Shown piece by piece: positions 880-60,880 of a stretch of DNA of 61,396 nt (within the stretch, counting starts at the first letter, position 1; every line of letters starts with the position of its first letter). Under the pieces are notes generated by a model. That model had not been told where the DNA came from, searched no databases, and worked only from the letters and a program-made list of their open reading frames with translations. The translations under genes were made by a program, and so were the position numbers. The stretch is from Mobula birostris (taxonomy: Eukaryota): the NCBI RefSeq assembly GCF_030028105.1, contig NC_092376.1:29310009-29371404 (forward strand), read 5' to 3'.

Positions 880-1525
880 TCAGTGCACTCGATGCCACCT
901 CCTCTACTTTGGTGAGATCCGTCATAAATTGGGGGACCGCTTCATCGATCACCTCCGCTCCATCCACCACAAGCAGGGTTTTTGGTGGCCAAACATTTTA
1001 ATTCTGGCTTCCATTCTGTTCCAACTTGTCAATCCATGGCTTCCTCTTTTACCAGGATTAAGCCACCATCAGGGTGGAGGTGCAACACCTTATAGTCCGT
1101 CTGAGTAGCCTTCACCTGTTGCATTAATAGCGATTTCTCCTTCCAGAGAACAAATTCACCCCTCCTTCCTCTATTCCCCATTTTGACCTTTTACTTCTCG
1201 CCTGCCTATAACTACACCCTGAATCCCCTCCTCCTTCCCTTTCTCCTATTACTCACTCTCTTCTCCTATCAGATTCACTCTTCTCCAGCCCTTGATCTTT
1301 CCCACTCACCTGGCTTCACATATCACCCTCCAGCTAGCCTCTTTCCTCTCCCCCCATCTTTTTATTCTGACAGCTTTCCCCTTCCTCCTCAGTCCTGAAG
1401 AAGGGTCTTGGCCTGAAACAATGACTGTTTACTCTTTTCTATAGATGCTGCCTGACTTGTTGAGTTTCTCCACCATCTTGAGTGTGTTGCTTTGGATTTC
1501 CAGCATCTATAGACTTTCTCATGTT
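880..1525 (+). mobile_element. Penelope-like element 3' fragment (GIY-YIG endonuclease remnant plus terminal repeat with hammerhead-like motif)
   Basis: ORF 869..1108 contains CTRCHLLYFGEIRHKLGDRFIDHLRSI (GIY-YIG Y-x-G-E...R..EH pattern). A pyrimidine-rich tail follows, then CAGTCCTGAAGAAGGGTCTTGGCCTGAAAC at 1390. Confidence 0.85.
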
Positions 1526-1807
1526 GGTGAAAAATAACCAGATGTTGTTTAGAAGCTCAATCCAGAGTAATTTAATCAATTGCTATCGAAAATTGTCCTA
1601 TTTACTCTGATGTAATAGCTTGGGAGGACTTTCAACGGCGTTGCAGTTAAAATTCGTGACACTAGTCAAAGACAATGTGTTCAGTTTTCCTAATGTTTAA
1701 GGGAATAAACAATCTCATCTGGAATGGAATTGCAAACACAGAGGAGTGAATGAAAGTGGTAGAGAAATTGAACTTGATTTCTTCAACACAGCTGGCAAGA
1801 AGATGAT

Positions 1808-2230
1808 TTCAAAGTTCAAAAATTTATTATCAGAATACATACATATCACCACATACAACCCTGAGATTCCTTTTCTGTGAGCATTCTTAACAAATCTATA
1901 GAATAGTAACCATCAGGAACTGTTAACCATAAACAAATGGTGCAAATGCAGATACAAATAAATAGCAATAAATAACAAGCATGGAATAACAATATAAGAG
2001 TCCTTAAATGAGTGTAGTTATCCTCTTTTGTTCAACAGCCTGATGGTTGAGGGGCAGTAACTGTTCTTGAAACTGGTGGTGTGAGTCCTGAGGTTCTTGT
2101 ACCTTCTATTTCTACCTGATGGCAGCAGTAAGAAAAGAGCATGGACTGGGTGGTGAGGATCTTTGATGATGGATGCTGCTTTTCTACGGCAATGTTTCAT
2201 GTAGATATGCTCAGTGTTTGGGAGGGTTCA
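1808..2230 (-). mobile_element. Rex1/Babar-type LINE 3' end
   Basis: ORF 2018..2200 reads KAASIIKDPHHPVHALFLLLPSGR..RTHTTSFKNS..TIRLLN, the C-terminal motif also seen in ORF 27064..28026. Tail TTTGAACTTTGAA on the minus strand. Confidence 0.85.
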
Positions 2231-2499
2231 TGATTTCATGTCACTGAATGATTTATTAAGGGGTACATGTTGATGAAGAAGTGAAGTGGATAGGCACAAA
2301 TATAAAGGCCCAAGGATCTGATGGATGTAAATGAGATTAATATAGACATGGTGGCCTGAAGTGTCTACTTCCATGCTGTATGACTCTTTTGTTTCTATGG
2401 GCTACAGGAAGATCTGTAGGAGACCTTGGAGGTAACTGTATTGAGAACCAACTGTCATGTTCTGGCCACATTTGAATTGAGAAGTAGTTGTCCATACAG

Positions 2500-2622
2500 G
2501 AGCAGATTGCCAGGCCTTTCTTCCATGCAGATACTACTGCCGACAAGGTTGGGACCCAGCCGGATTTGAACTCAGGACCATCCACCTCAAAGTCTAGTGC
2601 TGATGCCACTACACCACCGGCC
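2500..2622 (-). mobile_element. tRNA-derived SINE head
   Basis: Minus strand reads GGCCGGTGGTGTAGTGG (A box) ... GAGTTCAAATCC (B box). A related copy lies at 36930-37141. Confidence 0.7.
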
Positions 2623-3009
2623 AGTCCACTAAACCATACGATGGTGATAAAGGAGGCATGAGGTGGTAAAGCATTCAAGGAAGGGGCCAGAAAGGGAGGT
2701 GTCAGTAAAGGGAATGAAGATTCAAATATTAAGGAGGAATTATGGATTGCATGTGATACTGAAGATATTTCTGAGGAGAAGTAGAGATCATAGATCATGC
2801 TGGCTACCAGAGATTATGCTGGTATTTGAGATTGTAGCTTCCTTATTAGGTGTACATGTTAACACCACAATATTTTGATGGATGTGAAAGTTGTCAGAGT
2901 TGTAACCATTCATAAACGTTATCAATGGGAAAGAGAGAAGCTAACATTTCCTCTAACTAATGGATGAATCATGCTACCACAGGTAGCAAATTATTTTGCA
3001 AGCAGTCAA

Positions 3010-3550
3010 ATCCCAGGACACTTTACCCCAGGAAAGACTACCATGACCATGAAGCCTTGCGTGGGCACCTGTGTGCGCATGTGCATACGTGCCAATTTTC
3101 TTCGGTTTTGCCTTCGTCTTCCCGACTACACTGTACATACATTATTTCTACTTTATATAGGCTGTGTATTTATCATATCATTCCTGCTTTTACTATATGT
3201 TAGTGTTATTTTTGGTTTTATGTGTTATTTGGTATGATACGGTAGGTTGTTTTTTTGAGTCTGGGAACGCTCAAAAATTTTTCCCATATAAATTAATGGT
3301 AATTGCTTCTTCGCTTTACGCCATTTCAGCACACAAGGTTTCATAGGAATGCTCTACCTTAGCGTGGGAAATACGGGACAAGGGCGGTTCCATATGGGAC
3401 AAACCAATTTAGCCCAATATACGGGATGTCCCGGCAAATACGGGACAGTTGGCAACCCTATGTTCAAGTTCAACAGTGCGTGACAGGGAACGAGGAAAGG
3501 TGCAGCTGACTCATATCGTTTCCTCGCGGCCCAGTGGTTGGGGACCGCTG
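3010..3550 (-). mobile_element. Composite non-autonomous DNA transposon (hAT-Charlie-like end + hAT-Blackjack-like end + Tigger end)
   Basis: Minus strand begins CAGCGGTCCCCAACC at 3550 and contains TAGGGTTGCCAACTGTCCCG at 3460. The 3125-3370 segment matches the terminal region of the Tigger element at 40999. Confidence 0.7.
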
Positions 3551-3706
3551 TCCTTGAGGACAGTTACTGCATTCATAACCACACTCATCTTTATCTTCCT
3601 CAAATATCAGATCTAATCTATTTTTTAAAATTCTTCTAACACTAGATAAAACTTGTTTTTATAAATGTCAGGACATGGGTCTAAATATCACATTCCATAA
3701 CTCCTA

Positions 3707-3940
3707 CACAAGAGATTCTGCTGATGCAGGAAATCCAGAATAACACACACAAAATGGTGGAGGAACTCAGCAGGTCAGGCAGCATTTATGGAAGGGTAAT
3801 GATTCGGGCCAAGACCTTGCATCAGGGCTGAAACGGAAGAGGGAAAGAAGCCAGAATAAGAAGGTGGTGGGAGGAGAAGGAGTACAAGCTGGCAGGTGAT
3901 AGGTGAAGCCAGGTGAGGGGGAATGTGGTGAGTGGGAGGC
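3707..3940 (-). mobile_element. Penelope-derived terminal repeat fragment
   Basis: Reverse complement of the 1290-1525 tail, with a degenerate CTGATG..GGCCCGAA motif. Confidence 0.75.
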
Positions 3941-4319
3941 TCCATAATTTCTGATGTTGAACGATGGTAAGCTGTAATTTTTACATAGTCACTAAAGACA
4001 GCATGAGAGGGAAGGAATATTGTCTATTATTAAATGTGTAGCAATACTATTAGTGTCAGAAATGATATATAATAACAGAGGTTATGTCATATAGTCAAGG
4101 AGAAAGCTATGATGTTTGGAATAGTTTACACTGAGCTTAGAGAACATTAAAGTGGGAAAAATCCCTTTGTTCTCATTTGAGACACCTATCTGTACCAGGA
4201 AACCAAACCTCAGAGTTTGCAATAATTAAAAGATTTAGTTCTGGCTTATTGCAGCTGTAGTATTTTGCTTTGATATTGTTTCTGGTTGTCTTCTTTCGGA
4301 GTTCATTTTTCTTTCATTT

Positions 4320-7249: not shown

Positions 7250-8335
7250 GTAGTCATAGTCATAGTCATACTTTATTGATCCCAGAGGGAAATTGGTTTT
7301 CATTGCAGTTGAACCATAAATAATAAATAGCCATAGAACCATAAATAGTTAAATAGTAATATGTAAATTATGCCAGTAAATTATGAAATAAGTCCAGGAC
7401 CAGCCTATTGGCTCAGGGTGTATGACCCTCCAAGGGAGGAGTTGTAATGTTTGATGGCCACAGGCAGGAATGACATCCTATGACGCTCTGTGCTGCATCT
7501 TGGAGGAATGAGTCTCTGGCTGAATGTACTCCTGTGCCCACCCAGTACATTATGTAGTGGATGGGAGACATTGTCCAAGATGGCATGCAACTTAGACAGC
7601 ATCCTCTTTTCAGACACCACCGTGAGAGAGTCCAGTTCCATCCCCACAACATCGCTGGCCTTACGAATAAGTTTGTCGATTCTGTTGGTGTCTGCTACCC
7701 TCAGCCTGCTGCCCCAGTACACAACAGCAAACATGATAGCACTGGCCACCACAGACTCGTAGAACATCCTCAGCATCGTCCGGCAGATGTTAAAGGACCT
7801 CAGTCTCCTCAGGAAGTAGAGACGGCTCTGACCCTTCTTGTAGACAGCCTCAGTGTTCTTTGACCAGTCCAGTTTATTGTCAATTCGTATCCCCAGGTAT
7901 TTGTAATCCTCCCACCAGCTCCTTAGTCTTTTTCACATTAAGCTGCAGATAGTTCTGCTCACACCATGTGACAAAGTTTCCTACCGTAGCCCTGTACTCA
8001 GCCTCATCTCCCTTGCTGATGCCTCCAACTATGGTAGAGTCATCCGAAAACTTCTGAAGATGACAAGACTCTGTGCAGGAGTTGAAGTCCGAGGTGTAAA
8101 TGGTGAAGAGAAAGGGAGACAAGACAGTCCCTTGTGGAGCTCCAGTGCTGCTGATCACTCTGTCGGGCACACAGTGTTGCAAGCACACGTACTGTGGTCT
8201 GCCAGTCAGGTAATCAGGAATCCATGACACCAGGGGAGCATCCACCTGCATCGCTGTCAGCTTCTCCCCCAGCAGAGCAGGGCGGATGGTGTTGAACGCA
8301 CTGGAGAAGTCAAAAAACATGACCCTCACAGCAGA
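7250..8335 (-). mobile_element. Rex1/Babar-type LINE, 5'-truncated, RT domain
   Basis: ORF 7880..8383 has [28 protein letters not shown] and KFSDD. ORF 7405..7776 is the C-terminus. (ACTATG)n tail at 7250-7270. Confidence 0.92.
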
Positions 8336-9284
8336 ACAGGCTACTTCCACAAGATACCTGAACAAAATCCAATTAAATCGCAATCTTGGTTTGGTCAGCT
8401 GTCAGATATATTAATGATTAAGAACACCTTTGAACTTTCCTGACTTTTAGAAATATTTAAAAGCTATTAATCTCAATGAAGCAATTAAATAATTTTAGAA
8501 ATATTAAAGATTTCCAAAGTCAAATTTAAAATATTTAACACTACTATGAAATAATTCAAAATGTTTAGTTAAACTCAATTAACTTGAAAGATGTATATTC
8601 CCTTACACTTTTTTAACTCACACTCATTCCTCTCCATTGAATCGAATAGGCACAATACCCTAATACCAGGTAATGTCTGACTTGGTCCTTGCATGGATAC
8701 CCAAGCAGAAGTGCTTGGGAATTGCACAATGCTTCCGTTCCATGACTGAAATGGATGTTCTCAGGCTGGGGCATGAATGTCATCTCCAGCAAAATCCATG
8801 GGTCACCACTGACCATAAGCCCAACTGCACCAGCCACAGTGCCTTTGAGAGCAGGTTGGAATCTTTGTGACCATCCAGAGCCTTCGACCATTTATATGGC
8901 ACATTATGGAATATCCTGTACTTTCCTGAATAGATGCAACTCCAACAACTTCCATGAAGGTTAAAACTGCCCACCAGAATGGTATCTATCTACCAGCTGA
9001 AAGAACGATTTGATATCAAGATGCAAATACAGCTGCACAATCTATGAAATGCACTTTAATTATTTGTCTTAGCTATGCCAGCATCACCTTCCAAACCACC
9101 CGTACCTGTCATCGAGAAGTGAAGGGCTTTCAAACACATTCCAATTCATATATTGTCCTGATTTAGAAATATCAAAGTCAAGAGTAAATTATATGTCACC
9201 ATAATCATCTAAGGTTAATTTTCTTGCATGCATTCATAGTTGAATAAATAAATACAATAGAAAAAACTACATTCAATAAGAACA

Positions 9285-13885: not shown

Positions 13886-13887
13886 AA

Positions 13888-14142
13888 ACATTTAGTGGCC
13901 ACTTTATTAGGTACAGGAGGAATGTTGTGTGTAAAAACCCCAGGGAATCAGCAGTTTCTGAGATACTCAAACCACCTTGTCCGGCACCAACAATCATTCC
14001 ATGGACAAAGTCATTTAGATCACATTTTTTCCCCATTCTGATGTTTGGTCTGAACCTCTTGACCATGTCTGCATGCTTTTATACACTGAGTTGCTGCCAC
14101 ATAATTTGCTGATTAGATATTAGATATTTACATTAATGAACA
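13888..14142 (-). mobile_element. Tc1-family non-autonomous element fragment
   Basis: TIR-like AGTGGCCACTTTATTAGGTACA. ORF reads MGKKCDLNDFVHGMIVGAGQGGLSISETAD (Tc1 paired-like HTH). Confidence 0.85.
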
Positions 14143-15875: not shown

Positions 15876-15879
15876 GTTC

Positions 15880-18339: not shown

Positions 18340-18780
18340 ATAGGTTAAGTGGATAGTTTGTGAGACAGTGCACTCTTTCCAACTGCTTATGCATGGTTTC
18401 TGTGTAATCCCAATGCATGCCCTCAAAATTCTTAATGCTATCCCAAATGGTCCATAGTGGGAGACTCGCAGATGTCAGTGCAGATGTTGCATTTCCCTCA
18501 GGAATCTTTGAATACATCCTTGAAGGTTTTTCTCTGGACATCTGGTAATCTCCTCTCACTATACAGTTTGGAATAGAATAAATGCAAGAAATTCTGCAGC
18601 TGCTGGAAATCCACAGCTAACAAGCACAAAATGCTGGAGAAACTCAAACAGGTCAAGCAACATCTGTGGAGAGGAATAAACAGTCGACTTTCAGAGGACT
18701 GCAATAGAATATCTACTTTGGGAATTTGGTGTTAGATATGTGAATGATGCAGCCAGTCCAATGTAACTGACTGAGACTAG
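18340..18780 (-). mobile_element. RTE LINE fragment interrupted by a Penelope terminal repeat (about 18585-18700)
   Basis: Minus-strand LYSERRLPDVQRKTFKDVFKDS.RKCNI, with an inserted TGCTGGAGAAACTCAAACAGGTCAAGCAACATC block. Confidence 0.65.
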
Positions 18781-24626: not shown

Positions 24627-24802
24627 GTGGGCACGTGGCCAAGTGGTTAAGGCATTGGACTAGCGACCTGAAGGTTGTGAGTTCGAGCCCCAGCCTAGGG
24701 AACGTGTTGTGTCCTTGAGCAAGGCACTTAATCACACATTGCTCTGCGACGACACTGGTGCCAAGCTGTATGGGTCCTAATGCCCTTCCCTTGGACAACA
24801 TC
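24627..24802 (+). mobile_element. Young tRNA-derived SINE with a CORE-like segment, 3'-truncated
   Basis: A box TGGCCAAGTGG and B box GAGTTCGAGCC, then TGTGTCCTTGAGCAAGGCACTTAA (resembles the CORE block TGTGACCTTGGGCAAGTCACTTAA). CpGs are retained. Confidence 0.8.
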
Positions 24803-24827
24803 AGTTTTCCAGTAAATTATTTATTAT

Positions 24828-24986
24828 TTATTTAATATTAAAAGTTTATAGATAGCTGTTGAAAGAAAATCATCTACACTTTATTTAATATTAAAAGTTT
24901 ATAGATAGCTGTTGAAAGATAATCATCTACACTTTATTTAATATTAAAAGTTTATAGATAGCTGTTGAAAGATAATCATCTACACT
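24828..24986. repeat. Tandem repeat, 3 x 53 bp
   Basis: TTATTTAATATTAAAAGTTTATAGATAGCTGTTGAAAGA(A/T)AATCATCTACACT starts at 24828, 24881 and 24934, with one mismatch. Confidence 0.97.
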
Positions 24987-25206
24987 GTAAACAGTTTCTG
25001 AGCCAAATGTCAAGAGATGTCGTCTGTGTGAAGCGGCTACCCAAGAAAGAAAAAGCATCTGGGAAATTAATTTATTATTGATACATAGGCAGGCATTTTA
25101 TCCCAACCAGCAAATAATTCTTTTGAACATCACCACTACAGGTATCTTACTGAGTCCCATGAATCCACAGTTGAACTGCCAAGAAAACCAGTAAAATGCT
25201 CCTATC

Positions 25207-25325
25207 AACGCACACAAAATGCTGGAGGAATTCAGCAGGTCAGGCAGCATCTATGGAAAACAGTAAGCAGTTGACATTTCAGGCCGAGACCCTTCTTCAG
25301 GACTGAGAAGGAACGGGGGAGATGC
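25207..25325 (-). mobile_element. Solo Penelope-derived terminal repeat with hammerhead-like motif
   Basis: Minus strand reads CAGTCCTGAAGAAGGGTCTCGGCCTGAAATGTCAACTG...ATAGATGCTGCCTGACCTGCTGAATTCCTCCAGC. Confidence 0.8.
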
Positions 25326-26639
25326 CCTCCTAGTATAGTTTACGTCAAGATCTGGGTTCATACAATCCAACAAGCAGCATGATTTATCCTCTGGAATATG
25401 ATAATTAACCACTCAATTGCAAACTGTTGTTGTATGTGAGTAACAGAAATCTCAATAATTGCTTTAATGAGCACTAATTTGTATTCCTAAAATATAAATA
25501 TACTTCTGCAAACTGTACTTGACTGAAGAATAATATTGTAATATAAGTTATGTGATATTCTTCCAAGGTTAAACAGAAAAACGCCTAAAACGTGAAAAGC
25601 CATAAGTATGAAACAAAAAGAACTCAGGCTAAACATGTTCCACAATGTTAATTAGGCTTCAGTGTTCCTTGTGTAATTTAGATTCAGGAGAAAGTTATAC
25701 AGAGGTTACAGAAGAGATTTATTAACCTGATACAAGGATTGCAAATCTTTGGTAAAGAAAAGAAAAACTAAAGAAAATAGGCCTTTTCATGAGCAAGAGG
25801 TGATTAAAGAGAAGTATGTTAGAGGGAGTTTCATACACTAAAAACTATTTCCACTGGTTAGTCATTAAACAGTTGTTGGTAAATTAAAAGTGATAATCGA
25901 ATGGCTTAGAGAATACTGTTCACACTGAGGATTGTTAGGGCATTGTATTTCCTATTGAAAACACTGGTGCAAGATAATTTGAAATGGCTTTAGCCAATGA
26001 AGAAAATGGTAAAGAATTTGGAAAAGGCGTAATGCTTAATCAATTATTACGCTGTAGCACTCTGACTTTTGTCATTAAGGATCACATGTCCATATCAGGG
26101 CCCACCTGGCTTTCCTTCTATCAAATAAATGGGAAGATAATTGGCAGATCTCTGTTGTGGGGACAAGAAATCTGCCCAGTTTTCTTTTTGAAGTCCCACC
26201 CAGCAGCGAGACAGCGGCCTTTTGCTATATGATGCCAAACACATTGTGATAGAGTAGCTTTCTGTTGCTCTGGTTAACTACATTATGCCATATTAAACTG
26301 TCCACAAGAACATCACATTCAGGCACAGTTCTATTCATTATTTTGTTTATCAAATGGAGGTTTTCTTAAGTGTCTGTGGATGCAAACAGTGTAAGTCGAA
26401 GTTTCGGGTCAAGACGGGGGAAAGACTGCCAGTATGCAGGAGAGTCATAGCACACCAGAGCATAGAAACAGGCCCTTCGACCCATCTAGTCTATGCCGAC
26501 CTCGTCTTCTGCCTAGTCCCATCTACCAGTGCAAGAGGAATGGTAGGACAGTGTTTAGCAGAACAAGTTGGAGAAGGGATGACAGGCAGATGAAACTACC
26601 TGTGGAGAGGTGGTCAGGACGATGAACAGGTCCAAATGA

Positions 26640-28299: not shown

Positions 28300-29135
28300 A
28301 TGAGAGCACCAAGGATGTGGTTACTTTAAACTGGAAAATTCAATGTTCACACTATTGGATTTTAAGCTACCCAAATGGCATATTAGATGTTGTTCTTCCA
28401 GTTTGTGATTGGTCTCTTTGTAGAAATGGATGAGATAGAAGACACTCAGGTCAGCTGGGAATGAAAAGAGTTAAAATGACCAGCACCTGGAAGTGAGAGA
28501 GGGCCGTTATAGGCAGTGTGTGGGGGGGGGGTTCTGCAACACAGTCACCTAGCCTATGCTTGATATCACTCATGTAGAAAAGACCACATTGTGAACACCA
28601 AATGCAATAGCTCAGGCAGCAGTAGTCTGCTTCACTTGCAGGGGCTGTTAAGTTCCCTGGATGGTGGAAGTGAAGAGCCAGGTTTTGTTGCTTCTTCATA
28701 TGCAGGGAAAATGATGGGGACAGGAATTGACAGGGTTGAAGGGTTGGGTCAACTAAGGAATTTTAAACAGAAATTCACCAGTCTCCCCATTCAACACACC
28801 AACTTCTGCCATTTGGCCAGATGCAGCATGATCTCCTCACCAGTCATATCTTCCCATGTCCCCAACTTTCTGGCTTCAACCATCACCTCCCAGCCTTTGT
28901 CCCAACACAATTCCTCACCTGATTCCATCTTCCCATCATTCCCATCACTTCCTGCTATCACTAGGCCCAGTCACACTCCCTTCACACTGCTGCATACTTG
29001 TAGTTCCTCCTGTTCCTTCCCAGTCCTGATACAGGTTTTCTGCCCAAAATGTCGACTTACATGTTTTGTGTTTACTGGTGCTGCTTGACTGTTGTGTTCT
29101 TCCACTGTTCTCTGTTTCTGTTCCTGATTCCTGAA
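28300..29135. mobile_element. Penelope fragments in opposite orientations (GIY-YIG on the minus strand; tail and terminal repeat on the plus strand)
   Basis: ORF 28451..28699 has YCIWCSQCGLFYMSDIKHRLGD. The plus strand has CAGTCCTGATACAGG..GCCCAAAATGTCGACT at about 29021. Confidence 0.7.
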
Positions 29136-36134: not shown

Positions 36135-36275
36135 TACACAAAACGCCTTGCAAAATACTCAGCAGATCATGCTGAATCAGTGGAACAGATACAGTGTTAG
36201 TGTTTCAGATTGAAGACCCTTCATCAGAACGATTTCCAGTATTTTCTATTTTAATTTTTAATTTCAAGCTTCTGG
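36135..36275 (-). mobile_element. Degenerate Penelope-type terminal repeat
   Basis: Minus strand reads GTTCTGATGAAGGGTCTTCAATCTGAAACACTAAC. Confidence 0.6.
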
Positions 36276-38339: not shown

Positions 38340-38962
38340 CACTCAGTGGCCACTTTATTAGGTACACCTGCTCGTTAATGCAAATATCTAATCAGCCAGT
38401 CACCTGGGAGCAACTCAATGCGTAAAAGCATGCAGACGTGGTCAAGAGGTTCATTTGTTATTCAAATCAAATATCAGAATGGGGAAGAAATGTGATGTAA
38501 GTAATTGGACAGTGAAATGATTGCTGGTGCCAGATGGGGTAGTTTGAGTGCCTCAGAAACTAATGATCTCCTGGGATTTTCACACAGGAGCAGGGGTTCC
38601 CAACTTTTTTTTATGCCACGGAGCCTTACCATTAACCGAGGGGTTCGTGGACCCCCTGTTCCAGGTTTCGCAGAGAATGGGGCAAAAAACAAGCAACATT
38701 CAGTGAGCAGGAGATCTGTTGGAAAAACGCCTTGTTTATGAGAGAGGTCAGAGGAGAACGGCCGGACTGATTCAAACTGACAAGAAGGGTACAGTAACTC
38801 AAACAACCACACATTAAAACAGTAGTGTGTAGCAGAGCATCTCTGAACACACAACACGTTGATACTTGAAGTGAATGGCTACAGCATCAGAAAGCCATGA
38901 ACATGCAATCTGTGACCACTTTATCAGGTATAAAAAGGTACCCAATAAAGTATTCACTGAGC
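38340..38962 (+). mobile_element. Tc1-family non-autonomous element with both ends
   Basis: TA|CACTCAGTGGCCACTTTATTAGGTAC ... GTACCCAATAAAGTATTCACTGAG. The interior is the N-terminal transposase remnant only, with no DDE domain. Confidence 0.9.
38591..38658. mobile_element. Tiny hAT-like MITE inserted in the Tc1 element
   Basis: CAGGGGTTCC ... GGACCCCCTG termini. The segment is absent from the paralogous Tc1 copies at 29.9 kb and 48.8 kb. Confidence 0.7.
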
Positions 38963-40817: not shown

Positions 40818-42800
40818 ATAAGACCACAAGAGACCATAAGATGCAGGAGCAGGATTAGGCCATTTGGCCCGTCGAGTCTGCTCTCCCATTCAATCATGAC
40901 TGATCCTTCTTCCCCTCCTCAGTCCCACTCCCCAGTCTTCTCCCCATAACCTTTGATGCAGAGCCCACTCAAGAACCCGTCAAGCTCTGCCTTAAATACA
41001 GGTTTCCCCCGCCATCCGAAGGTAGAGCGTTCTTGTGAAACGGTTCGTAAGCCGGAATGTCGTAAAGCGAAGAGGCAATTACCATTTATTTATATGGGAA
41101 AAATTTGTGAGCGTTCGCAGACCCAAAAATAACCTACCAAATCATGCCAAATAACACATAAAACCTAAAATAACAGTAACATATAGTAAAAGCAGGAATG
41201 ATATGATGAATACTCAGCCTATATAAAGTAGAAATACTTTTCCACAATAATTGCCTGCACTGTTCTCTGTAGCGAAAATCTCACACAAGCGCTCTTGGCA
41301 AAAACACGTGCAAGCGCTCTCCAGTAACCTTTTAGGCTATGAAGCCGCCAAATCATACCAAATAACATGTAAAAAGTACACGGCCTATATAAAGTAGAAA
41401 TAATGTATGCACAGTGTAGTGTCACTTACCGGAATTGGGACAGCGCCGAGCACACTGAAAATGGTGTGTTAGGCTGAGTCGTCGGAGGTTAGGGTGGTGC
41501 AGTGGCCCCCACCCTCCAGGCAGCGAACCGATACATTGCCGCGGAGAATGCAGGGGTCCAGCAGTGGCTGGGACGCACCCAGCACATCTTTAAGAAAAAA
41601 AGCCAAAATAAACAAGCTGATTAATTAGGTGCCGCCCGGCACGTAAATGTTGGCCCAGATCAGAGGCGACGCAATTGGCAATCATTTCTGATCTGGGCCG
41701 ACATTTATGTGCCGGGCGGCACCTAATTAATTAGCTTGTTTATTTCGGCTTTTTTTCTTCAGGATGTACTGGGTGCCTCTCGTCTACTGCTGCATTCTCC
41801 ACGGATCGGTATCAGCGGCCCGGGGTTTGGGGTGGTGGGACACTGGGGTGTCATCTCATCGTCTATTTCCATGAGCGTAGGCAGGTCATCTTCTATGTCT
41901 GCCTGCCTCGATTTCGAAGGTCGAGGTTTGTCGTTTGCCATGGCTGATGTGGAAGGCTTGAAAAATGACAGTATGCTTGACTGCTGAGCCTCGCGCATTT
42001 TTCCATCATACGGTTCTTTGTAAGCACTCAAACCATCCTGCAACTATGCCCTAAACCGACGTACCCTTTCAAAATTGAAGTCATACTTTATCATTGCAGT
42101 GAAAATCTCACGTAGTTGCCTCACGTTCAGTTCCTGGACGACTTCACATTTGGTCTGTTCGCTACTGCATTCAGTTTTGATTGTTTTCCTTTCCTCTTGC
42201 AATTGCATCAGCTCTTCATCTATCAGTTCTTGGTCATGGGATGCCAAAACCTCTTCAACATCATCCTCATCAACTTCCACAAGCCAAACTCACTTTGTCC
42301 TTACTTCGTTCACCACGATCGAAACGCTTAATTATGTCTAGTTTTACGCTGTGTAACACCCTTACGAGCTCTTTTAAGCTTTTCCAATACCTTAGAACTC
42401 ATCTTGCTAACGGATGCTCACAGGCACATGATTAAGCAATGCTGGCGAGAATGCCGTTCCGAATCCGGGGGAGAGCGGCTGCTCGGGGCGTGCGCTGCCT
42501 TTTTTTTCGCGCGCTGCTTTTTTTCGTAACAGTGAAAACACCTTCTGTTAGCGAAAATAGGTAACTAATGTAGATCTTTCGTAACAGTGAGGTTTCGTAA
42601 AGCGAACGTTCGAAAAGCGGGGGACACCTGTACCCTAACGACCTGGCCTCCACAACTGCCTGTGATAATAAATTCCGCAAATTCACCACCCTGTCTGTTT
42701 TAAATGGACGCTCTTCTATTCTGGACTCTCCCACCACGGGAAACATCCTTTCCCCACCTACTCTGTCTAGGCATTCAGAAGATTTGAATGAGATCCCCCC
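40818..42800 (-). mobile_element. CR1 3' end split by the Tigger insertion
   Basis: Removing 40999-42630 and one TA restores GCCTTAAATA|CCCTAACGACCTGGCCTCCAC, the reverse of the CR1 3' region. Confidence 0.85.
40999..42630 (-). mobile_element. Tigger/pogo-like DNA transposon, internally deleted
   Basis: TA target-site duplication (40997-98 and 42631-32); TIRs CAGGTTTCCCCCGC / GCGGGGGACACCTG. ORFs 42044..42280 (EVDEDDVEEVLASHDQELIDEELMQL..DFNFERVRRF) and 41759..42043 (YKEPYD.K..AQQSSILSFFK) resemble the Tigger transposase C-terminus. Confidence 0.9.
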
Positions 42801-45607: not shown

Positions 45608-48040
45608 ATAGAACATAGAATAGTACAGCACAGTACAGGCCCTTCGGCCCACATTGTTGTGCCGACCATCAAACCCTGCCTCCCATATAACCCCCCCCAC
45701 CTTAAATCCCTCCATATACCTGTCTAGTAGTCTCTAAATTTCACTAGTGTATCTGCCTCCGTCATAGACTCAGGCAGTGCATTCCATGCACCAACTACTC
45801 TCTGAGTAAAAAAACCTTCCTCTAATATCCCCCTTGAACTTCCCACCCCTTACCTTAAAGCCATGTCCTCTTGTATTGAGCAGTGGTGGCCTGGGGAAGA
45901 GGCGCTGGCTATCCACTCTATTTATTCCTCTTAATATCTTGTACACCTCTATCATGTCTCCTCTCATCCTCCTTCTCTCCAAAGAGTAAAGCCCTAGCTC
46001 CCTTAATCTCTGATTATAATGCATACTCTCTAAACCAGGCAGCATCCTGGTAAATCTCCTCTGTACCCTTTCCAATGCTTCCACATCCTTCCTATAGTGA
46101 GGTGACCAGAACTGGACACAATACTCCAAGTGTGGCCTAACCAGAGTTTTATAGAGCTGCATCATTACCTCGTGACTCTTAAACTCTATCTCTTGACTTA
46201 TGACAGCTAACTTAATTAACTAACTTAACTAACTTAAGCTTTCTTAACTACCCTATCTACCTGCGAGGCAACTTTCAGGGATCTGTGGACATGTACTCGA
46301 AGATCCCTCTGCTCCTCCACACTACCAAGTATCCTGCCATTTACTTTGTACTCTGCCTTGGAGTTTGTCCTTCCAAAGTGTACCACCTCACACCCGGAAG
46401 TCTACCACCTCACACTTCTCCGGGTTGAACTCCATCTGCCACTTCTCAGCCCACTTCTGCAACCTATCAATGTCTCTCTGCATTGATAGGTTGCAGAAGT
46501 GGCAGAAGTGCTCGACAATCCTCTACACTATCTACAACACCACCAACCTTTGTGTCATCTGCAAACCTGCCAACCCATCCTTCTACCCCCCCCATCCAGG
46601 TCATTAATAAAAATCACGAAAAGTAGAGGTCCCAGAACCGATCCTTGTGGGACACCACTAGTCATAACCCTTCAATCCAAATGTACTCCCTCTACCACGA
46701 CCCTCTGCCTTCTGCAGACAAGCCAATTCTGAATCCACCTGGCCAAACTTCCCTGAATCCCATACCTTCTGATTTTCTGAATAAGCCTACCGTGTGGAAC
46801 CTTGTCAAATGCCTTACTAAAATCCATGTAGATCACATCCACTGCACTACCCTCATCTATATGCCTGGTCACCTCCTCAAAGAATTCTATCAGGCTTGTT
46901 AGACATGATCTGCCCTGCACGAAGCCATGCTGACTGTCCCTGATCAGACCATGATTCTCTAAATGCCCATAGATCCCATCTCTAAGAATCTTTTCCAACA
47001 GCTTTCCCACCACAGACATAAGGCTCACTGGTCTATAATTACCCGGACTATCCCTACTACCTTTTTTGAACAAGGGGACAACATTCGCCTCCCTCCAATC
47101 CTCTGATATCATTCCCATAGACAACAAGGACATAAAGATTCTAACCAGAGGCTCAGCAATCTCTTCCCTCGCCTTGTGGAACAGCCTGGGGAATATTCCG
47201 TCAGGCCCCGGGGACTTACCCGTCCTAATGTATTTTAACAACTCCAACACCTCCTCTCCCTTAATATCAGCATGCTCCAGAACATCAACCTCACTCATAT
47301 TGTCCTCACCGTCATCAAGTTCCCTCTCATTGGTGAATACGGAAGAGAAGTATTCATTGAGGACCTCGCTCACTTCCACAGCCTCCAGGCACATCTTCCC
47401 ACCTTTATCTCTAATTGGTCTTACCTTCACTCCTGTCATCCTTTTGTTCTTCACATAATTGAAGAATGCCTTGGGGTTTTCCTTTACCCTACTCGCCAAG
47501 GTCTTCTCATGCCCCCTTCTTGCTCTTCTCAGCCCCTTCTTAAGCTCCTTTCTTGCTCCCCTATATTCCTCAATAGTCCCATCTGATCCTTGATTCCTAA
47601 ACTTCATGTATGCTGCCTTCTTCCACCTGACTAGATTTTCCACCTCACTTGTCATCCATGGTTCCTTCACCCTCCCATTCTTTATCTTCCTCTCCAGGAC
47701 AAATTTATCCCTAACATCCTGCAAGAGATCTCCAAACATTGACCACATGTCCATAGTACATTTCCCTGCAAAAACATCATCCCAATTCACACCTGCAAGT
47801 TCTAGCCTTACAGCCTCATAATTTGCCCTTCCCCAATTACAAATTTTCCTGCCCTCTCTGATTCTATCCTTTTCCATGATAATGCTGAAGGCCAGGGAGC
47901 AGTAATCACTGTCCCCCAGATGCTCACCCACTGAGAGATCTGTGACCTGACCCAGTTCATTACCTAGTACTAGATCTAGTATGGCATTCCCCCTAGTCGG
48001 CCTGTCAACATACCGTGACAGGAATCCGTTCTGGACACTG
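45608..48040 (-). mobile_element. CR1 LINE, about 2.4 kb, 5'-truncated
   Basis: ORF 46672..48066 has PTRGNAILDLVL, KSPGPDGI, NYRPVSL, QHGFVQGRSCLTSL and YMDFSKAFDKVPH. ORF 45770..46165 has LVRPHLEYCVQFWSP. TTCTATGTTCTAT tail. Confidence 0.96.
46672..48040 (-). pseudogene. CR1 ORF2 remnant (end of endonuclease, tether, N-terminal RT)
   Basis: About 455 open codons. The annotated Met lies in flanking SINE sequence and the downstream RT is disrupted. Confidence 0.85.
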
Positions 48041-48529
48041 TCTGTGGTCACGGGGAGAATGTACAAACTCCTTACAGACAGCAGCGGGAAAAGAACCCAA
48101 ATTAACTTTTGCAGCTGCTTGTCGGGATGGGATAGTGCTGTGATTGTATTATATAGTGTGCTATAGGATAGAGTAAAGGATATGTCATGGATAGAGCCCT
48201 GGTTGATGAATTCTTTGAAGTGTTGCTTATGGTGGCACTAATTGGATCTCCTTGATAAGCTGTTTGTCCTTGGCTCTCGCAAGGATGGAGTCTCTGGGGT
48301 TTCCTGTTTGACTAAGCTCTTTGCAAGATCTATTGAAGAGCATCATTAAATTCTGATGGGATATGCCCAACAACCATCACCCCAACCCCATCCCAATTGA
48401 ATGAACATAATATTTCAATAGGCACTAGTCAAACAGTTATCTAATTGGCCAAGCCAACATTTTACATTGATCTATCTCCCAAAGTTAACACTTTGTCAGA
48501 TTGGTTCCATTTCACACTAGTTAAATGGT

Positions 48530-49050
48530 ATACACTCAGTGACCAGTTTATTAGGTACAGGAGTGGAACCCGGTGTAGCCTTCTGCTGCTGTAGCCCATT
48601 CACTTCAAGGTTTGATGTGCTGTGCATTCAGAGAAGTTCTTCTGCACACCACTGATGTAATGTATTGTTACTTGAGTTACTGTCACCTTCCTGTTAGCTT
48701 GAACCAGCCTGGCCATTTCCACTGTGCTGTCTCAATAACAAGGCACTTATGCCCACAGAACTGCTGCTCACTGGCTACATATTGTTTTTTTTGTACCATC
48801 CTTTGAAAATTCTAGAGAGTGTTGTGTGTGAAAATCTCAGGGTACCAGCAGTTTTTGAAATACTCAAACCACCCTGTCTGGCACCGGCAACCATTAAATG
48901 GTCACAGTCACCTATGCTGCATTGCTTCCCCATTCTGATGTTCAGTCTGAACCACAACTGAACCTCATGGCCATGTCTGAATGCTTTTATGCATTGAGTT
49001 GCTACCACATAATTGGCTGATTAGATATTTGTGTGAACAAACAGGTGTAT
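48530..49050 (-). mobile_element. Tc1-family non-autonomous element
   Basis: TA|CACTCAGTGACCAGTTTATTAGGTACA. Minus-strand ORF MGKQCSIGDCDHLMVAGARQGGLSISKTA. Confidence 0.88.
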
Positions 49051-49059
49051 AAGTGTAAT

Positions 49060-49580
49060 CCACACAACATGCTGGAGGATCTCAGCAGGTCAGACAGCAT
49101 CTATGGATGGGAATAAACAGTCGATGTTTTGGGCCAAGAACCTTCTTCAGGACTGGAAAGGAAGGGGAAAGAAGTCAGAATAAGAAGGTGGGGAGGGAGG
49201 AGGAAGACATACAAGGTGACAGGTGATTGGTGAAACCAGGAGGGGTGAAGTAAAGAGCTGGGAAGTTGATTGGTGGGAGAGATAAAGGGCTGGAGACGGG
49301 GGAATCTGACAGAGGAGGACAGGAGACCATGGAAGAGAGGGAAGGGGGGAGGAGCACCACAGGGAAGTGGTGGGCAGGTAGGGAGATAAGGTAAGAGAGG
49401 GAAACAGAAATAGGGAATGGTGAAGGAGGCAATTACTGAAAGTTCGAGAAATCGATATTTGTGCCATCAGGGTGGAGGTTCTGACTTCTCCCTTCTCACT
49501 CAGCCCGAAGCGTCAGCTGTTTATTCCCATCTATAGATGATGCCTGACTGCTGAGCTCCTCCAGCACATTGTGTGCATCT
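49060..49580. mobile_element. Penelope tail with inverted terminal repeats
   Basis: 49060-49130 is the reverse complement of 49505-49575. Hammerhead-like motif on the minus strand at 49118-49155. Confidence 0.8.
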
Positions 49581-49686: not shown

Positions 49687-50770
49687 ACATAGAATCATAG
49701 AAAACATACAGCACAATACAGGCCCTTCGGCCCACAAAGCTGCGCTGAACATTTCCCTACCTTAGAACTACCTAGGCTTTACTCATAGCCCTCGATTTTT
49801 CTAAGCTCCATGTACCCATCCAGGAGTCTCTTAAAAGACCCTATCGTTTCCACCTCCACCACCGCTGCCGGCAGCCCATTCAACGCACTCACCACTCTCT
49901 GTGCAAGAAACTTACCCCTAACATCTCCTCTGTACCTACTTCCAAGCACCTTAAAACTATGCCCTCTTGTGCTAGCCATTTCAGCCCTGAGGAAAAGCCT
50001 CTGATTATCCACGCGATTAATGCCTCTCATTATGTTATACACCTCTATCAGGTCACCTCTCATCCTCCGTCGCTCCAAAGAGAAAAGGCCAAGTTCACTC
50101 AACCTATTCTCATAAGGCATGCTCCCCAATCCAGGCAACATCTTTGTAAATCTCCTCTGCACCCTTTCTATAGTTTCCACATCCTTCCTATAGTGAAGCG
50201 ACCAGAATTGAGCACAGTACTCCAAGTGGGGTCTGAACAGGGTCCTATATAGCTGCAACATTACCTCTTGGCTCTTAAACTCAGTGCCACAATTGATGAA
50301 GGCCAGTGCACCATATGCCTTCTTAACCACAGAGTCAACCTGCGTAGCAGCTTTGAGTGTCCTATGGACTCAGACCCCAAGATCCCTCTGATCCTCCACA
50401 CTGCCAAGAGTCTTACCATTAATACTATATTCTGCCATCATATTTGACCTACCAACATGAACCACCTCAAACTTATCTGGGTTGAACTCCATCTGCCACT
50501 TCTCAGCCCAGTTTTGCATCCTATCAATGTCCCGCTGTAACCTCTGACAGCCCTCCACACTATCCACAACACCCCCAACCTTTGTGTCATCAGCAAATTT
50601 ACTAACCCATCCCTCCACTTCCTCATCCAGGTCATTTATAAAAATCACAAAGAGTAGGGGTCCCAGAACAGATCCCTGAGGCACTCCACTGGTGACTGAC
50701 CTCCATGCAGAATATGACCTGTCTACAACCACTCTTTGCCTTCTGTGGGCAAGCCAGTTCTGGATCCACA
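49687..50770 (-). mobile_element. CR1 LINE 3' 1.1 kb
   Basis: ORF 50370..50771 has [30 protein letters not shown] 49779..50330 is the C-terminus. Confidence 0.96.
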
Positions 50771-50789
50771 TCTCTGCAGATTTTAAAAG

Positions 50790-51250
50790 GCTGACGTTAG
50801 GAAGATAAGTGGGTGCGAAAGGGTGAAGGAGAGGGAATGCTGTGAGAACTGGAAGGTGATAGGTGGAAGTGGTAAAGGGCTAAAGTAGAAGAAATCTGAT
50901 TGGAGAAGATTGTAGATCGTAGAATAAAAGGAAGGACTTGGGGAACCAAAGAGGGATGTCATGGTCATGTCCTGAGCACGGGAAGGGAAGGGAATCAGTG
51001 AGAGGGCCACCAGAAATAGGAAAACAAAGAGGGGGGAAGTGGGAAAGCAAGGAAAATAGAGGGCTACCTTTCCCCTCACCTAGAAACACCCTTTTCCTGC
51101 CAGCTTGTGCTCTTACCTCTCCTCCCACATTTATTCTGGCTTCTAACCACTTCCTAATGAAATGTTTTGGCCCAAATGTCGACTGTTCATTTCCGTCCAT
51201 AGATGCTGCCTAATCTGCTGAATTTCTCCATCATTTTGTGTGAGTTGTTC
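50790..51250. mobile_element. Penelope tails in inverted arrangement
   Basis: Purine-rich minus-strand tail followed by a pyrimidine-rich plus-strand tail ending GGCCCAAATGTCGACTG..ATAGATGCTGCC. Confidence 0.7.
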
Positions 51251-51516
51251 TGCTTCATAGACTTTTTCTACACCTCTTGCTGCCTTGCTAAAGCAGCCAG
51301 CGTAATGAAAGATCCTACCTTCCTGGACACTCTCTGTTTTCTCCCTCCTACCGGGTAGAAGATACACAACCCTGAACGTACGTACTAACATTTTCCAAGA
51401 CAGCTTCTGCCCAGCTGATACAAGAATAAACAAAGGTGCCCTAGTATCATAAGATGGACTGTTGACCTCACAATCTACCTCTTGCATCTCATTGTCTGCC
51501 AGCACTGTACCTTATT

Positions 51517-51860: not shown

Positions 51861-51911
51861 TACTCTGTTAATTGTTTTACCTTATACTACCTCAATACCA
51901 CTGACTTAACT

Positions 51912-52957: not shown

Positions 52958-53148
52958 AAACCAAATATATATGTTTTTTTTGTGTGACTGTATGTTTATT
53001 GCAATTTTATATGTGTTATATGTGCCTTGTGGTGTGTGCGATTGTTGGTACTGTGTTTTGCGTCTTGGCTTTGGAGTAATGCTGCTTCATTTGGCTGTAT
53101 TCGTGTATGATTGAATGATAAACTTGAAATTGAAAATCTGTTACCATC

Positions 53149-53280
53149 TGAGTCCTGACGAAGGGTCTCGGCCCAAAACGTCGACTGTACCTCTTCCTAT
53201 AGATGCTGCCTGGCCTGCTGCGTTCACCAGCATTTTTTGTGGGTGTTGCTTGAATTTCCAGCATCTGCAGATTTCCTCGC
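53149..53280 (+). mobile_element. Solo Penelope-derived terminal repeat
   Basis: About 130 bp, starting at the hammerhead motif, with no coding remnant. Confidence 0.82.
53151..53186 (+). ncRNA. Minimal type I hammerhead ribozyme-like motif (best-preserved copy; G12 appears mutated to A)
   Basis: AGTC-CTGACGA-A-GGGT-CTCG-GCCC-AAAAC-GTC-GACT. Stem I is AGTC/GACT, stem II is GGGT/GCCC, and a palindromic ACGT replaces stem III. Confidence 0.65.
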
Positions 53281-53934
53281 ATTACCATCTGTTTTTATGT
53301 TTCCTGGCATTCTACACTATCTTCATTTTCTTTATCTATTTTTGAATCCAAGATGCTCTGTATCCTTATGTTAATACCATTTCTAGAAATACTGTGAAAC
53401 GTCTTCCTTTTGAAACTACCTTTAATATTTTTTCTGTTCTGCCAAAGATGAATAAATTTCCTTTTGGGTTTTAGTGATGTCAAATAGTCTTCCTTTTGTA
53501 ACTTGCTTCATTTCTTAAACTCTAGCTAATTCCTGTGCATCCTCATTAACTTGTAATATATTTTTCACTCGACTGGAGTCGACTGTCATTTTATACCCTT
53601 GTTCTTTTTTGTTTAACACCCTAGTTTCACATCAAATTATATCATGTTCAAATCCAATGTAAAATTCTATCATCTCCCACAAAAGCTCCTTAACCCCAAG
53701 ACATTCCATGAATTAATATTCCGTGTTATGATGTAAAATCAGAATCAGGTTTATTATCACCGGCATGTGACGTGAAATTTGACCAGTCCAAATATTAGGT
53801 TAAAATCTCCCATAATTATCCTACTACCCCAGTTACTCATCTTGCTATGCCACATTAATATTAAAATTACTATTTGGTATCCTATAAAAACACTTCCACC
53901 AATGTTTTCAGCTCTATATTATCTGTGTAACTGT

Positions 53935-57310: not shown

Positions 57311-57321
57311 GGCTACGTGTT

Positions 57322-57680
57322 TCCTTTGGGAGGTCACATTGTTTGCATGCCTGGCACCAGCCTTCGGAAATGGAAACAGGAAGAGATTACAGGCACACAG
57401 AGGAAAAGGCTTAAGGATGTGTGCAAAGCCTCTTGAGAAAACATCCCCATTGACTCCTGGGAATCCCTGACCCATGACTGCTCAAAATGGCACAGCAACA
57501 CTGCAGATGGCACACAGAAATTTGCTTGACTACCTCACCAACAGGCACTTGCTGTCCCATCCGTGGAAGCATACATAGTTCTCACATTGGCCTCATCAGA
57601 CATCTCAGAACCCACAAAAAATCAAAGCGGAGCCAAGATATTCTTGAAATTGATTGGCTGCTCATGAAGAAGAAGAATAT
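57322..57680 (+). mobile_element. RTE (BovB-like) LINE 3' end
   Basis: GHIVCMP..GKRL..QRKRLKDVCKAS and SHIGLIRHLRTH. (GAA)n tail. Confidence 0.75.
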
Positions 57681-58704
57681 GTAATATTGAACAATACTAT
57701 TTTTCAAATGGAGTCATCCTTTAAGTGTTGTTCCACGTGAGGAAGTACTGACTAGAGGTGCCATGGGACTTAGTTTAAGAGAGTCCCAAAATGAAGTAGT
57801 GCAAAAGAAAGCAGGCTTAAAGATAAAAGGAGAAAAAAAAGGTGCTGGAAAGCTGAAATAAGAATAAATAATACTTAAAATGATCAGCAGGTCAGGCAGC
57901 AGGTGTGGAGGGGGAAGGAGTTAATGTTTCAGGTCAAGAAACTCGAGCATGTATGACAGAAATGGTTTTTGGACATGTCAAAGTAAGTAGATTGTAAGTA
58001 ACTGTTTGTGTAGATGGTTGAGAATCTATTGAGAGCAAATACTTAATAGCCGGGTACAAAACTCATGGTTCATTAGGCAGTATTGATTCCTGCCTTGTAC
58101 ATGCTTTTGAGACCTGAACTGCCTACAATAGATGTGTCAAGGCATTGGAAAGCTGATGAGTGGTCCCTGGTCTCCAGTCCCCAGTCCCCAGTCCCCAGTC
58201 CCCTCAAACTGTTTTCCTCTCTCCTGTCTTCCCATGAGTTCCCTCAGCCTGTGCGAATAATCATTCAATTTTTCATTATTCAGATCAAGGCCACAGAATG
58301 AATGTCCAGATATGGTCTTTGATGCGGAGTGGATATAGCCATTGGACTTTGTTGCCTCTAGTCGCCACAGTCTTTGAAGACCCCACATGACCTTTGATGT
58401 TCCAGTAGGTCAACACTTCATGTTAGTTTGCCCATTATATACCATCATCTCCCTCACACAGATCAATCTTCCTGAAGATCTCTTTCTGACAATTGATAAT
58501 ATCACCTCGTCTCCTCCAGATTAATGATTGTACAGACATGGCTTGGCTTATCTTTATTTGCCATCCTTCAAAGCAACAACCAACTCATTGTGTGCAGAGC
58601 AGCCACACAATAGTGAAAGCCGCTTTGGCCATGAGAATCACAGATTTATTTCCACTGACTTAGCTAATGTGAAATTTGGTTTTTGGTGGCACCAGTACAT
58701 TGCA

Positions 58705-58960
58705 AAGACGTAAAAGGGTTCAATTACAACCACTGTCGTAATGGAGCTTGTATGCTCTCCCCATGACCGGATAGATTTTCTCTTGGTGCCTGACATTCCA
58801 AAGACGTATGGGTGAGGGATAGTGAGCCGTGGGCACGCTATGTTAGCGTGTGAAGCGTGGTGACACTTGTGGACTGCCCAGCGCAATTCTTGCTGGTTTG
58901 ATTTGGTGCAATTGATGCATTTCACTGTATATTTCGATGTACATGTGACAAATAAGGCCG
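58705..58960 (+). mobile_element. HE1/V-type SINE
   Basis: Same core and TGTACATGTGACAAATAA tail as the 20533 and 22207 copies. Confidence 0.7.
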
Positions 58961-58984
58961 ATCTCTTTAAAGTTACTACGAATT

Positions 58985-59260
58985 ACAAAAAAGTACGAAC
59001 AAAAGGAATAATGAGTTCATGGATCATTCAGAAATCGAATGGAGGGGAATGAGCTCTTTCTGAATCACTGAGTGTAGGTGTTCAGGTCCTTGTTCCCTCC
59101 TTCCCAATGGTAGTAGTGAGCAGAGGGCATGCCCTGCACGGTGAGGGTGATCGATGCAGCCTTTTGTGGCACATCCTCTTGGAGAAGTCCTCGATGGTGG
59201 TGAGGTTTGTTCCCATGAGTGGGCGGGCTGCATCGACAACCCTCTGCAGCCCATTATGAT
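58985..59260 (-). mobile_element. Rex1/Babar-type LINE 3' fragment
   Basis: IDHPHRAGHALCSLLPLGRR motif. Confidence 0.7.
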
Positions 59261-59701
59261 TCTGTTTTTTACTTATTTATTTTACATTTCACCTCAGTTC
59301 TGCAGAATTTCCTCAGGTCAGTACAATCTTTATCACATTGTTTACAGATAAGGTACACAATTCTTTAACCTTTAAATCCTCCATCAAGTTCCTCATCATG
59401 CCCTTTGAATTAAAATTTAAAAATTATTCACAGCTGGGAGATCAGCGGACATAGCGGGGTGAGGGATTGAGGAGGAGGAGGAGGAGGAGGGTAAGTGGGT
59501 TTGATATTTATAAAGCTGTCAGTTGGCTTGTTAAGCTGCAGAAACCCCCTTTTACTGGGCGTCTCTGGAAATGTGCCCCACTAGCGGCCACTGGATTCCG
59601 CGGCGAGAAACCCACCTTTCCCCGGCTTCGTACATCGAGGGTGTATGTGACTTTGATCCTGCCAAATCCGTGAGGTCGGGATGTCTTGCCTAGCCCTGAT
59701 T

Positions 59702-60303
59702 TGTGTGAATGCTGTGTGATTTATTGCCCCCAGCAATCAATTGTTGGCCAGAAATAACAGTTTGTACACTGTATAATCAGAAATATATTTAAGAGTGTTA
59801 ACTTACGCCAACAGTTATTAGAGGAAAGAAAGAAAAAAACAAAAAAGGCCCATTATACTTCATGGTGGAGCTAAAAATCTTGAAGTTGTTTGTAACTCAT
59901 GTGCAGGACCCTCGGTCTGTGTGAAAGCACACTCCACTTTCTGAAGGTTGCTCGAAATCTATCTTGAACGAAAAGGCTCTCCCATGGGAGTATTGGCCCT
60001 TCCTCCTCAAAGCCATTCATCTGCACAAAGCACTTTGTGCAACAGGGACGGCATCCTCAGCCATCTTCCCTCCTGTCTTCTTCCAGCTCCTGCCAACAAA
60101 GACCTCTCCATCCAGCATTCTCTAGAACCTTCTCCCAATTCCACCATTCTGATTGAGTGACACCACATTCCCAAGTGGAACAACAAAGCCTCTTATCTCA
60201 GCTCAAACCCAAACAGGCTGAAAGCAGAACAGACTGCTCTTACAGAACTGCTAAGATGAAATACCTACAGCATAGCAGTAAGAATCTTAACCAGGGCATT
60301 ACA
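59702..60303 (-). mobile_element. Possible solo LTR
   Basis: Minus strand starts TGTAATGCCC at 60303 and ends ..TTCACA(CA). About 600 bp, non-coding, no TSD resolved. Confidence 0.4.
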
Positions 60304-60707
60304 GCTGTTTGATGAATAAAATATCCAAGATGATAACTTAAACTAGGAACTATTTCTGGTATCTTAGAGAGTTCATAAAGAAAGATGCTGAGACAATGCT
60401 TCTAGCAAACAAATTCTCAATTCCCTTATCACATTTGAAAATGTTTCCTATTTGGTGAGAGGGCTTCTATTTCTTTTAACAGGCTTTGCAGGGCAGGTTT
60501 CAGGGAATAAGCCTTTTAAGCACTGATGAAGAATATGTGGCTATTGAGGACAATTCCAGTGAGAATAAGGTATTGGTCACTGATTCAATAGAAGGTGGAA
60601 TTTTGAATGAATGTCAAGTTATTATGTGGGCAGTCTCTTGAGGATTATTTCTATGGTAGATAAATAACTCTAGGTATACATGCATCAGAAAAGCAAATTT
60701 GTTTGAA

Positions 60708-60880
60708 TAAACACAAAAGATCCCGCAGATGCAGGAAATCCAGAGTAACTCACACAAAATGCTGAAGGAACTCAGCAGGTCAGGCAGCAGCTATGGAGGG
60801 GAATAAACAGTTTAAGGGTCTCGGCCTGTAATGTCGACTGTAAATTCCTCTCCTTAGATGATGCCTGAACTGCTGAGTTT
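60708..60880. mobile_element. Palindromic pair of Penelope terminal repeats
   Basis: AACTCAGCAGGTCAGGCAGCAGCTATGGAGGGGAAT ... ATTCCTCTCCTTAGATGATGCCTGAACTGCTGAGTT around a partial hammerhead motif. Confidence 0.78.

Follow-up and report, generated by a model that had tools for sequence, protein, structure and literature searches.

Penelope-derived repeats with a minimal hammerhead motif in Mobula birostris and the short copies that start at the 5' edge of the ribozyme

The stretch of DNA analyzed here, hereafter the window, comprises 61,396 nucleotides of the Mobula birostris genome (contig NC_092376.1, positions 29,310,009 to 29,371,404 of the forward strand) and carries dispersed copies of a terminal repeat of a Penelope-like element (PLE) in which a minimal hammerhead ribozyme motif is embedded. 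The role of the hammerhead in the Penelope cycle is debated: one model has it cut and circularize the RNA, and in-vitro work finds it dispensable. Tens of thousands of young copies in this genome let the ends of the copies serve as a footprint. On balance we think that the repeats are probably dead 3'-end fragments of a Neptune-type Penelope with a minimal hammerhead motif. The short units, which start 30 to 33 nt ahead of the predicted cut, probably arose as by-products when an uncut RNA was copied, and that RNA itself likely starts there. Element positions are counted from the cut predicted after GUC, with -1 for the C and +1 for the following base.

Penelope-derived repeats in the window

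A first-pass annotation made from the letters of the window had listed nine motif sites, and recognizable copies are present at all nine. Six of them match a 28-nt core with at most six substitutions, a level reached by no site in any of 30 shuffled windows. As that annotation had also noted, none of the window copies is intact. They fall into different subfamilies and have varied ends, most belonging to an older subfamily (B) and the copy at 53151 to a young one (A). This copy, the best in the window, has its motif at 53151-53187 with a single core difference, a CpG-type change at G12 of GAAA. It forms a young short unit (53151-53281, forward strand) that runs from -32 to +99, with the cut predicted after 53182, between a 10-bp target-site duplication at 53141-53150 (forward strand) and its right copy at 53282-53291. 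The unit had been described as lying at 53149-53280 and beginning right at the ribozyme; it does begin with the motif, at 53151, but its start lies 32 nt before the cut and not at it.

Other copies retain more of the element. A 5'-truncated copy on the forward strand (881-1528) consists of a GIY-YIG remnant at 881-1094 (tblastn E = 7e-12; also by blastn), the 3' untranslated region (UTR), a decayed motif at 1390-1427 and a long tail, and another on the reverse strand (3706-3941) has the 3' UTR, a decayed motif at about 3794-3830 and a long tail. Two insertions are head to head: at 49061-49578 (reverse strand) an inverted arm (49499-49578) precedes a direct copy that extends from the end of the open reading frame (ORF) at 49478 through the motif at 49118-49155, and at 50821-51255 (forward strand) an inverted 3' UTR arm precedes a direct copy at 51066-51255 with a decayed motif at about 51150-51186. 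A third head-to-head pair (60705-60879) joins an inverted arm at 60705-60811, reaching from the tail to about +2, to a direct arm at 60814-60879 that starts at about -22. A reverse transcriptase (RT) remnant of the same family lies 250 bp past this pair (61126-61332, forward strand). Several copies had been presented as solo units free of coding remnants, which needs correction for the copies at 1390 and 49118, both of which have such remnants upstream. A GIY-YIG C-terminal remnant at 28324-28609 (reverse strand; tblastn E = 4e-12) is possibly the inverted arm of an old copy at 29004-29100 (forward strand; decayed motif 29021-29058). The shorter copies on the reverse strand include one at 25206-25326, which starts about 55 nt before the cut and has its motif at 25268-25305 and a short tail, and an old one at 36157-36230, which starts at about -31 and is preceded by an apparent short inverted tail piece. 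Beyond the nine sites we found three fragments, namely the inverted arm at 49499-49578, a short copy at 18576-18700 (reverse strand) that starts near -33, has an internally deleted core and carries a 9-bp target-site duplication, and an old fragment at 57884-57943 (reverse strand) with the 3' part of the motif and the repeat that follows.

The Penelope origin given in the first-pass annotation is supported by copies elsewhere in the genome, in which the repeat follows an ORF encoding RT and a GIY-YIG endonuclease and, where copies are nearly full, lies ahead of the ORF start as well. Long frames upstream of intact motifs (L057, L078, L101) contain the DKG motif, the RT core, a CX4CxxC linker and the GIY-YIG domain: DKG and the RT core were seen in L078 and L101, the linker lies between RT and endonuclease in L057, L064 and L078, and a single 403-aa frame runs from the end of RT to GIY-YIG in L057. 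A PDB sequence search with the RT of the element returned nothing useful. In L282 and L299 the repeat continues into the 5' UTR and then, some 140 nt past the cut, an ATG; since the repeat thus also lies upstream of the ORF, it is a true pseudo-LTR (pLTR). A CX2-5CxxC linker has been assigned to Neptune and Nematis (PMC8557442), and Neptune is the clade reported in vertebrates (bioRxiv 10.64898/2026.07.22.740005). The sequence features point to a Neptune-type PLE, with the proviso that Nematis shares the linker.

The motif and the ends of its copies across the genome

The consensus proposed in the first-pass annotation proved correct, as its 34-nt centre has 6,283 exact copies genome-wide (control 0) and one copy, L049, has the full 38-nt form. 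A 31-mer downstream of the cut, specific to young subfamily A, occurs 62,354 times in the 4.0-Gb genome, and the matching 29-mer of older subfamily B 14,166 times, with none for either reversed control. A third subfamily (L405, L406, L407, L418, L424, L428) differs in loop II and the 3' flank and has the same core. The description of the motif as a type I hammerhead of minimal form, having a palindromic stem III and lying in a Penelope-like terminal repeat, is borne out by the sequence: exact copies and column counts contain the conserved core, helices I and II, and the palindromic helix III. Core bases and helix spacing are constant across the three subfamilies with their differing flanks, a constancy that is partly due to selecting copies on the motif. 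Helix changes among the subfamilies are one-sided only, from G-C to G-U at -33 and -9. Within subfamily A, the G-C pair conserved at the base of helix II is replaced by G-U in a large sublineage (at -9, 141 T versus 185 C), and T at this position is commoner than CpG decay explains.

To tabulate 5' ends against the GUC site, as the first-pass annotation had proposed, we used 95 of the first 100 listed copies on contig C1, chosen only by sequence downstream of the cut, and counted arms of either orientation within the same loci. Starts at -35 to -28 were found in 22/95 copies (background 0.25 per base; P = 6e-16), and starts at -3 to +4 in 3/95, the background level (P = 0.32). There is no gathering of ends at the cut, and the sharp start at the 5' edge of the ribozyme shows that the boundaries are not simply random truncations of full elements, the outcome that the first-pass annotation had set against its own reading. 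The remaining ends are widely spread, and 36/95 copies extend at least 300 nt upstream. In subfamily B, which is noisier with age, 11/54 copies start at -35 to -28 and 4/54 at -3 to +4. Genome-wide, the base before A(-32) is non-native in 3,770 copies, versus 39,759 with the native base, and the base before G(-31) is non-native in 3,850. Sampled cases, judged by eye, were true junctions rather than point changes in 27/30 and 25/30, so that junctions start about 7% of copies at -32 and about 7% at -31. At the cut itself, a purine at -1 was found in 1,083 versus 59,359 copies and 7 of 30 sampled were junctions, all of which join inverted arms, mostly via a common GAC; they amount to less than 1% of copies.

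Many starts at -32 or -31 abut the duplicated target directly, as in L144, L181, L199, L326, L358 and the window copy at 53151, and therefore no upstream exon was copied in them. Other starts in the pile-up join an inverted arm. No shared 5' exon was found among 33 direct flanks beyond two explained pairs. Exon trapping, or a spliced 5' exon, was considered and rejected, as 3/92 flanks match the element in forward orientation and none is recurrent.

The 3' ends were tabulated for 181 copies. They fall into two zones about 35 nt apart, around +67 (78/181 at +62 to +75) and +102 (73/181 at +95 to +108), with 151/181 in the two zones together; the interval between them corresponds to the optional 30-40 bp PLE tail. 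In the Anolis element PAc, two internal RT start sites explain the tail and the template appears uncut (PMC11167929), and by analogy we infer that the two zones here are internal start sites of reverse transcription. Many of the sampled copies have target-site duplications of about 8-15 bp, and 35/95 copies have an inverted arm on the 5' side; four of 185 copies (L037, L070, L094, L107), which yielded no 5' alignment, were excluded here.

Templates of the short copies and cleavage by the motif

On our reading, an initiator in the upstream pLTR would make position -32, and the minor site at -36, transcription starts. An RNA of this kind would give the 100-140 bp unit when primed at its first tail and ordinary truncated copies when primed at its second. 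The ribozyme would cut weakly or late, needing a dimer or the element's protein, and would not set the copy ends. A(-32) has the context pyrimidine-pyrimidine-A-G-T-pyrimidine in both subfamilies, and subfamily A shows this context again at -36, another starting point of tandem joins (about 15/70); we take both contexts to fit the initiator consensus. The base before A(-32) is G in 34 and A in 20 of 100 matches listed (P = 0.002), as expected of a transcript start, where the cap would template one base. The pLTR of Drosophila Penelope has a TATA-less internal promoter whose downstream element contains ACGT (PMC2377424), and the helix III palindrome ACGT lies here at +28 to +31 counted from A(-32). 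Because the short units keep the whole ribozyme, their templates were uncut, and the copy ends as a whole say that cleavage at the ribozyme had not occurred in most templates.

Several observations weigh against this interpretation. Most of the sampled copies lie in the first megabases of a single contig and belong to the young subfamily. The ends spread over -33 to -29, with -31 as common as -32, and none of four near-full 5' ends lies at -32: L282 and L299 start more than 120 nt upstream of the cut, and L284 and L307 about 20 nt downstream of it. The excess of G is modest and is given without a neighbouring-position control, and among direct joins C equals G (6 and 6). Extension past the tail is equal in short and long copies (3/87 versus 4/109), which leaves priming at the upstream tail unsupported. 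The Pfam matches to RVT_1 (E = 4e-5) and GIY-YIG (E = 0.004) are weak, with scores under the curated cut-offs.

The same pile-up at -32 and -31 might arise on a longer RNA, as a point where reverse transcription or RNA decay stops at the end of stem I or at proteins bound to a pyrimidine tract and AG. The pile-up falls on the 5' strand of stem I (-33 to -29), directly after a pyrimidine tract ending in AG; long and near-full copies pass straight through it; and in Drosophila virilis Penelope, helix I is where an intron ends (PMC4209133). The AG itself, however, is included in the starts, the 33 direct flanks yielded no spliced 5' exon, and G is commoner than A before A(-32). Hairpins usually stall polymerase on entry, and no pile-up is seen on the +5 side, where such a stall would occur. 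We regard a stop point as a fair alternative, though the less likely of the two. A second hammerhead cut at -32 was rejected by inspection, as the 3' side is unable to pair as helix I. The first-pass annotation had suggested a possible ribozyme-cut, self-propagating non-autonomous family, retrozyme-like or like a short interspersed nuclear element (SINE), mobilized by Penelope. Many 100-140 bp units with a fixed start are indeed flanked by target-site duplications, a pLTR origin has been argued for retrozymes (bioRxiv 10.64898/2026.07.22.740005), and short and long copies differed at position -9 in a pooled sample (P = 0.004). That pool was partly selected on the base in question, and the difference is gone in the unbiased sample (P = 1.0). 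At the six other variable columns short copies equal long ones, and with variant ratios equal at 6/7 columns no lineage of short copies distinct from the long ones was found. Divergence is likewise equal over the 78 nt compared (2.7% versus 2.6%, from 92 short and 186 long copies), so the short copies have neither private variants nor an age of their own. The unit ends lie away from the cut (3/95, and at the cut only the 7/30 inverted joins), the window copies are of different subfamilies with varied ends, and the window contains no retrozyme-type tandem arrays; genome-wide, 172 very short tandem joins (period under about 60 nt) were found, in a search that did not extend to longer-period arrays. 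We therefore consider such a family improbable.

Whether the motif cleaves is a separate matter. It may only resemble a hammerhead, kept as a promoter or protein-binding signal and never cleaving, which would be compatible with an uncut RNA starting at the ribozyme edge. In the predicted folds of lowest energy the core pairs with the GUC strand, an inactive pairing; a hammerhead dimer can be drawn without a pseudoknot and lies 14-17 kcal/mol above the best predicted dimer; no two-sided compensatory change occurs among the three subfamilies; and the Rfam search that the first-pass annotation had recommended found no hammerhead at E-values up to 5. On the other hand, the core and helix spacing are complete and constant across subfamilies, and related motifs of the minimal type do cleave, either as dimers or with a protein (PMC4209133, PMC11167929). 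The folding preference is in keeping with these two studies, in which cleavage by such motifs is reported to be weak or assisted by protein, and we judge a motif that never cleaves to be very improbable.

Rare tandem joins bear on the same question. In 21/70 of them, the unit whose last base is exactly -1 connects to A(-32). In the wider set (172 matches, of which 100 were listed and tallied by hand), 17 joins end at -1, 15 at +7, including two clusters of repeats, and 10 at +3; this tally is preferred to a scripted one (84 rows) that was enriched for -1 by the choice of loci. Because the core is complementary to -4 to -1, 10 of the 17 joins at -1 can also be explained by folding back with 4 nt of microhomology, an explanation that does not hold for a few blunt ones (L484, L487, L491, L495). 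R2 junctions record ribozyme cut sites (PMC3774820), and reading cuts from joins therefore has precedent. Tandem joins ending at GUC are a hint and may record cleavage in the animal, with microhomology as the alternative. As a separate observation, L401, L426, L461, L493 and L496 each hold a head-to-tail run of ribozyme units of 32-40 nt, two to four in number, within one insertion, some with identical joins.

More tentatively, the genome might be a fossil record of a Penelope RNA whose 5' end lies exactly at the ribozyme edge. Promoter and ribozyme would overlap, with the helix III palindrome at +28 to +31 counted from the start, the place of the downstream element in promoters of Drosophila long interspersed nuclear elements (LINEs). 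Short units in their thousands would be copies whose priming took place in the first tail, and tandem joins with their end exactly at GUC would reflect a jump of the enzyme onto the 32-nt 5' cleavage product. We hold this fuller version to be possible and no better than that; if true, it would be the first sign of a Penelope hammerhead cutting in the germ line. What the copy ends predict is precise, namely position -32 and a 32-nt RNA ending in GUC.

Other repeats and comparison with known systems

The window also holds other repeats. Long frames of LINE reverse transcriptases, presumably CR1/L2-like and Rex-like, lie at 46672-48237, 49779-50879 and 7405-8401 (reverse strand) and at 26983-28026 (forward strand). 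A near-perfect palindrome at 41559-41792, with 106-nt arms that are 89% complementary, resembles a miniature inverted-repeat transposable element and adjoins a repeat 88% like 3143-3360; related stretches lie at 3143-3360 and 41019-41420. Another dispersed family, whose members measure about 480 bp and have similar ends (13920-14121, 29713-30190, 38362-38895, 48578-49058), is, we assume, akin to a Tc1-type non-autonomous element. A tRNA-like stretch below the Rfam threshold (24629-24691), possibly the head of a SINE, is followed at 24827-24986 by three 53-nt tandem copies that are 99% alike.

A family of minimal hammerheads in Penelope pLTRs has already been published, and the ribozyme family is not new. 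No report of a fixed start at the ribozyme edge was found in the literature searched, which did not include subscription journals and repeat databases. The pLTR hammerheads of metazoan PLEs (Cervera and de la Pena 2014, PMC4209133) share with the present motif the CUGANGA and GAAA cores, the extra base before helix II, the G-C at the base of helix II, the palindromic ACGU replacing helix III and the 5-bp helix I, and they too occur as thousands of dispersed single copies linked to truncated elements. Here, helix II is short (4 bp) and the copy number is far higher, and the fixed start is not reported in the text available of that study. With Neptune-clade PLEs (Craig et al. 2021, PMC8557442) the element shares RT, the CX2-5CxxC linker and, at the C terminus, GIY-YIG with CCHH, as well as heavy 5' truncation, inverted 5' arms and the optional 30-40 bp tail; unlike them, it has no microsatellite targeting evident in the flanks viewed. 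The Anolis Poseidon element PAc (Frangieh et al. 2024, PMC11167929) likewise has two 3' end zones just past the hammerhead and a template that was apparently uncut, but it belongs to another clade and its ORF starts within the ribozyme, whereas here some 140 nt separate the cut from the ATG downstream of it. Non-LTR retrozymes (PMC7229834; bioRxiv 10.64898/2026.07.22.740005) are also short, non-coding and pLTR-related with a type I hammerhead; the preprint covers one cartilaginous fish, whose families may overlap the present one. Retrozymes, however, are described in these sources as tandem arrays processed from cut to cut into circles, whereas the units here are single or head to head and start 32 nt before the cut.

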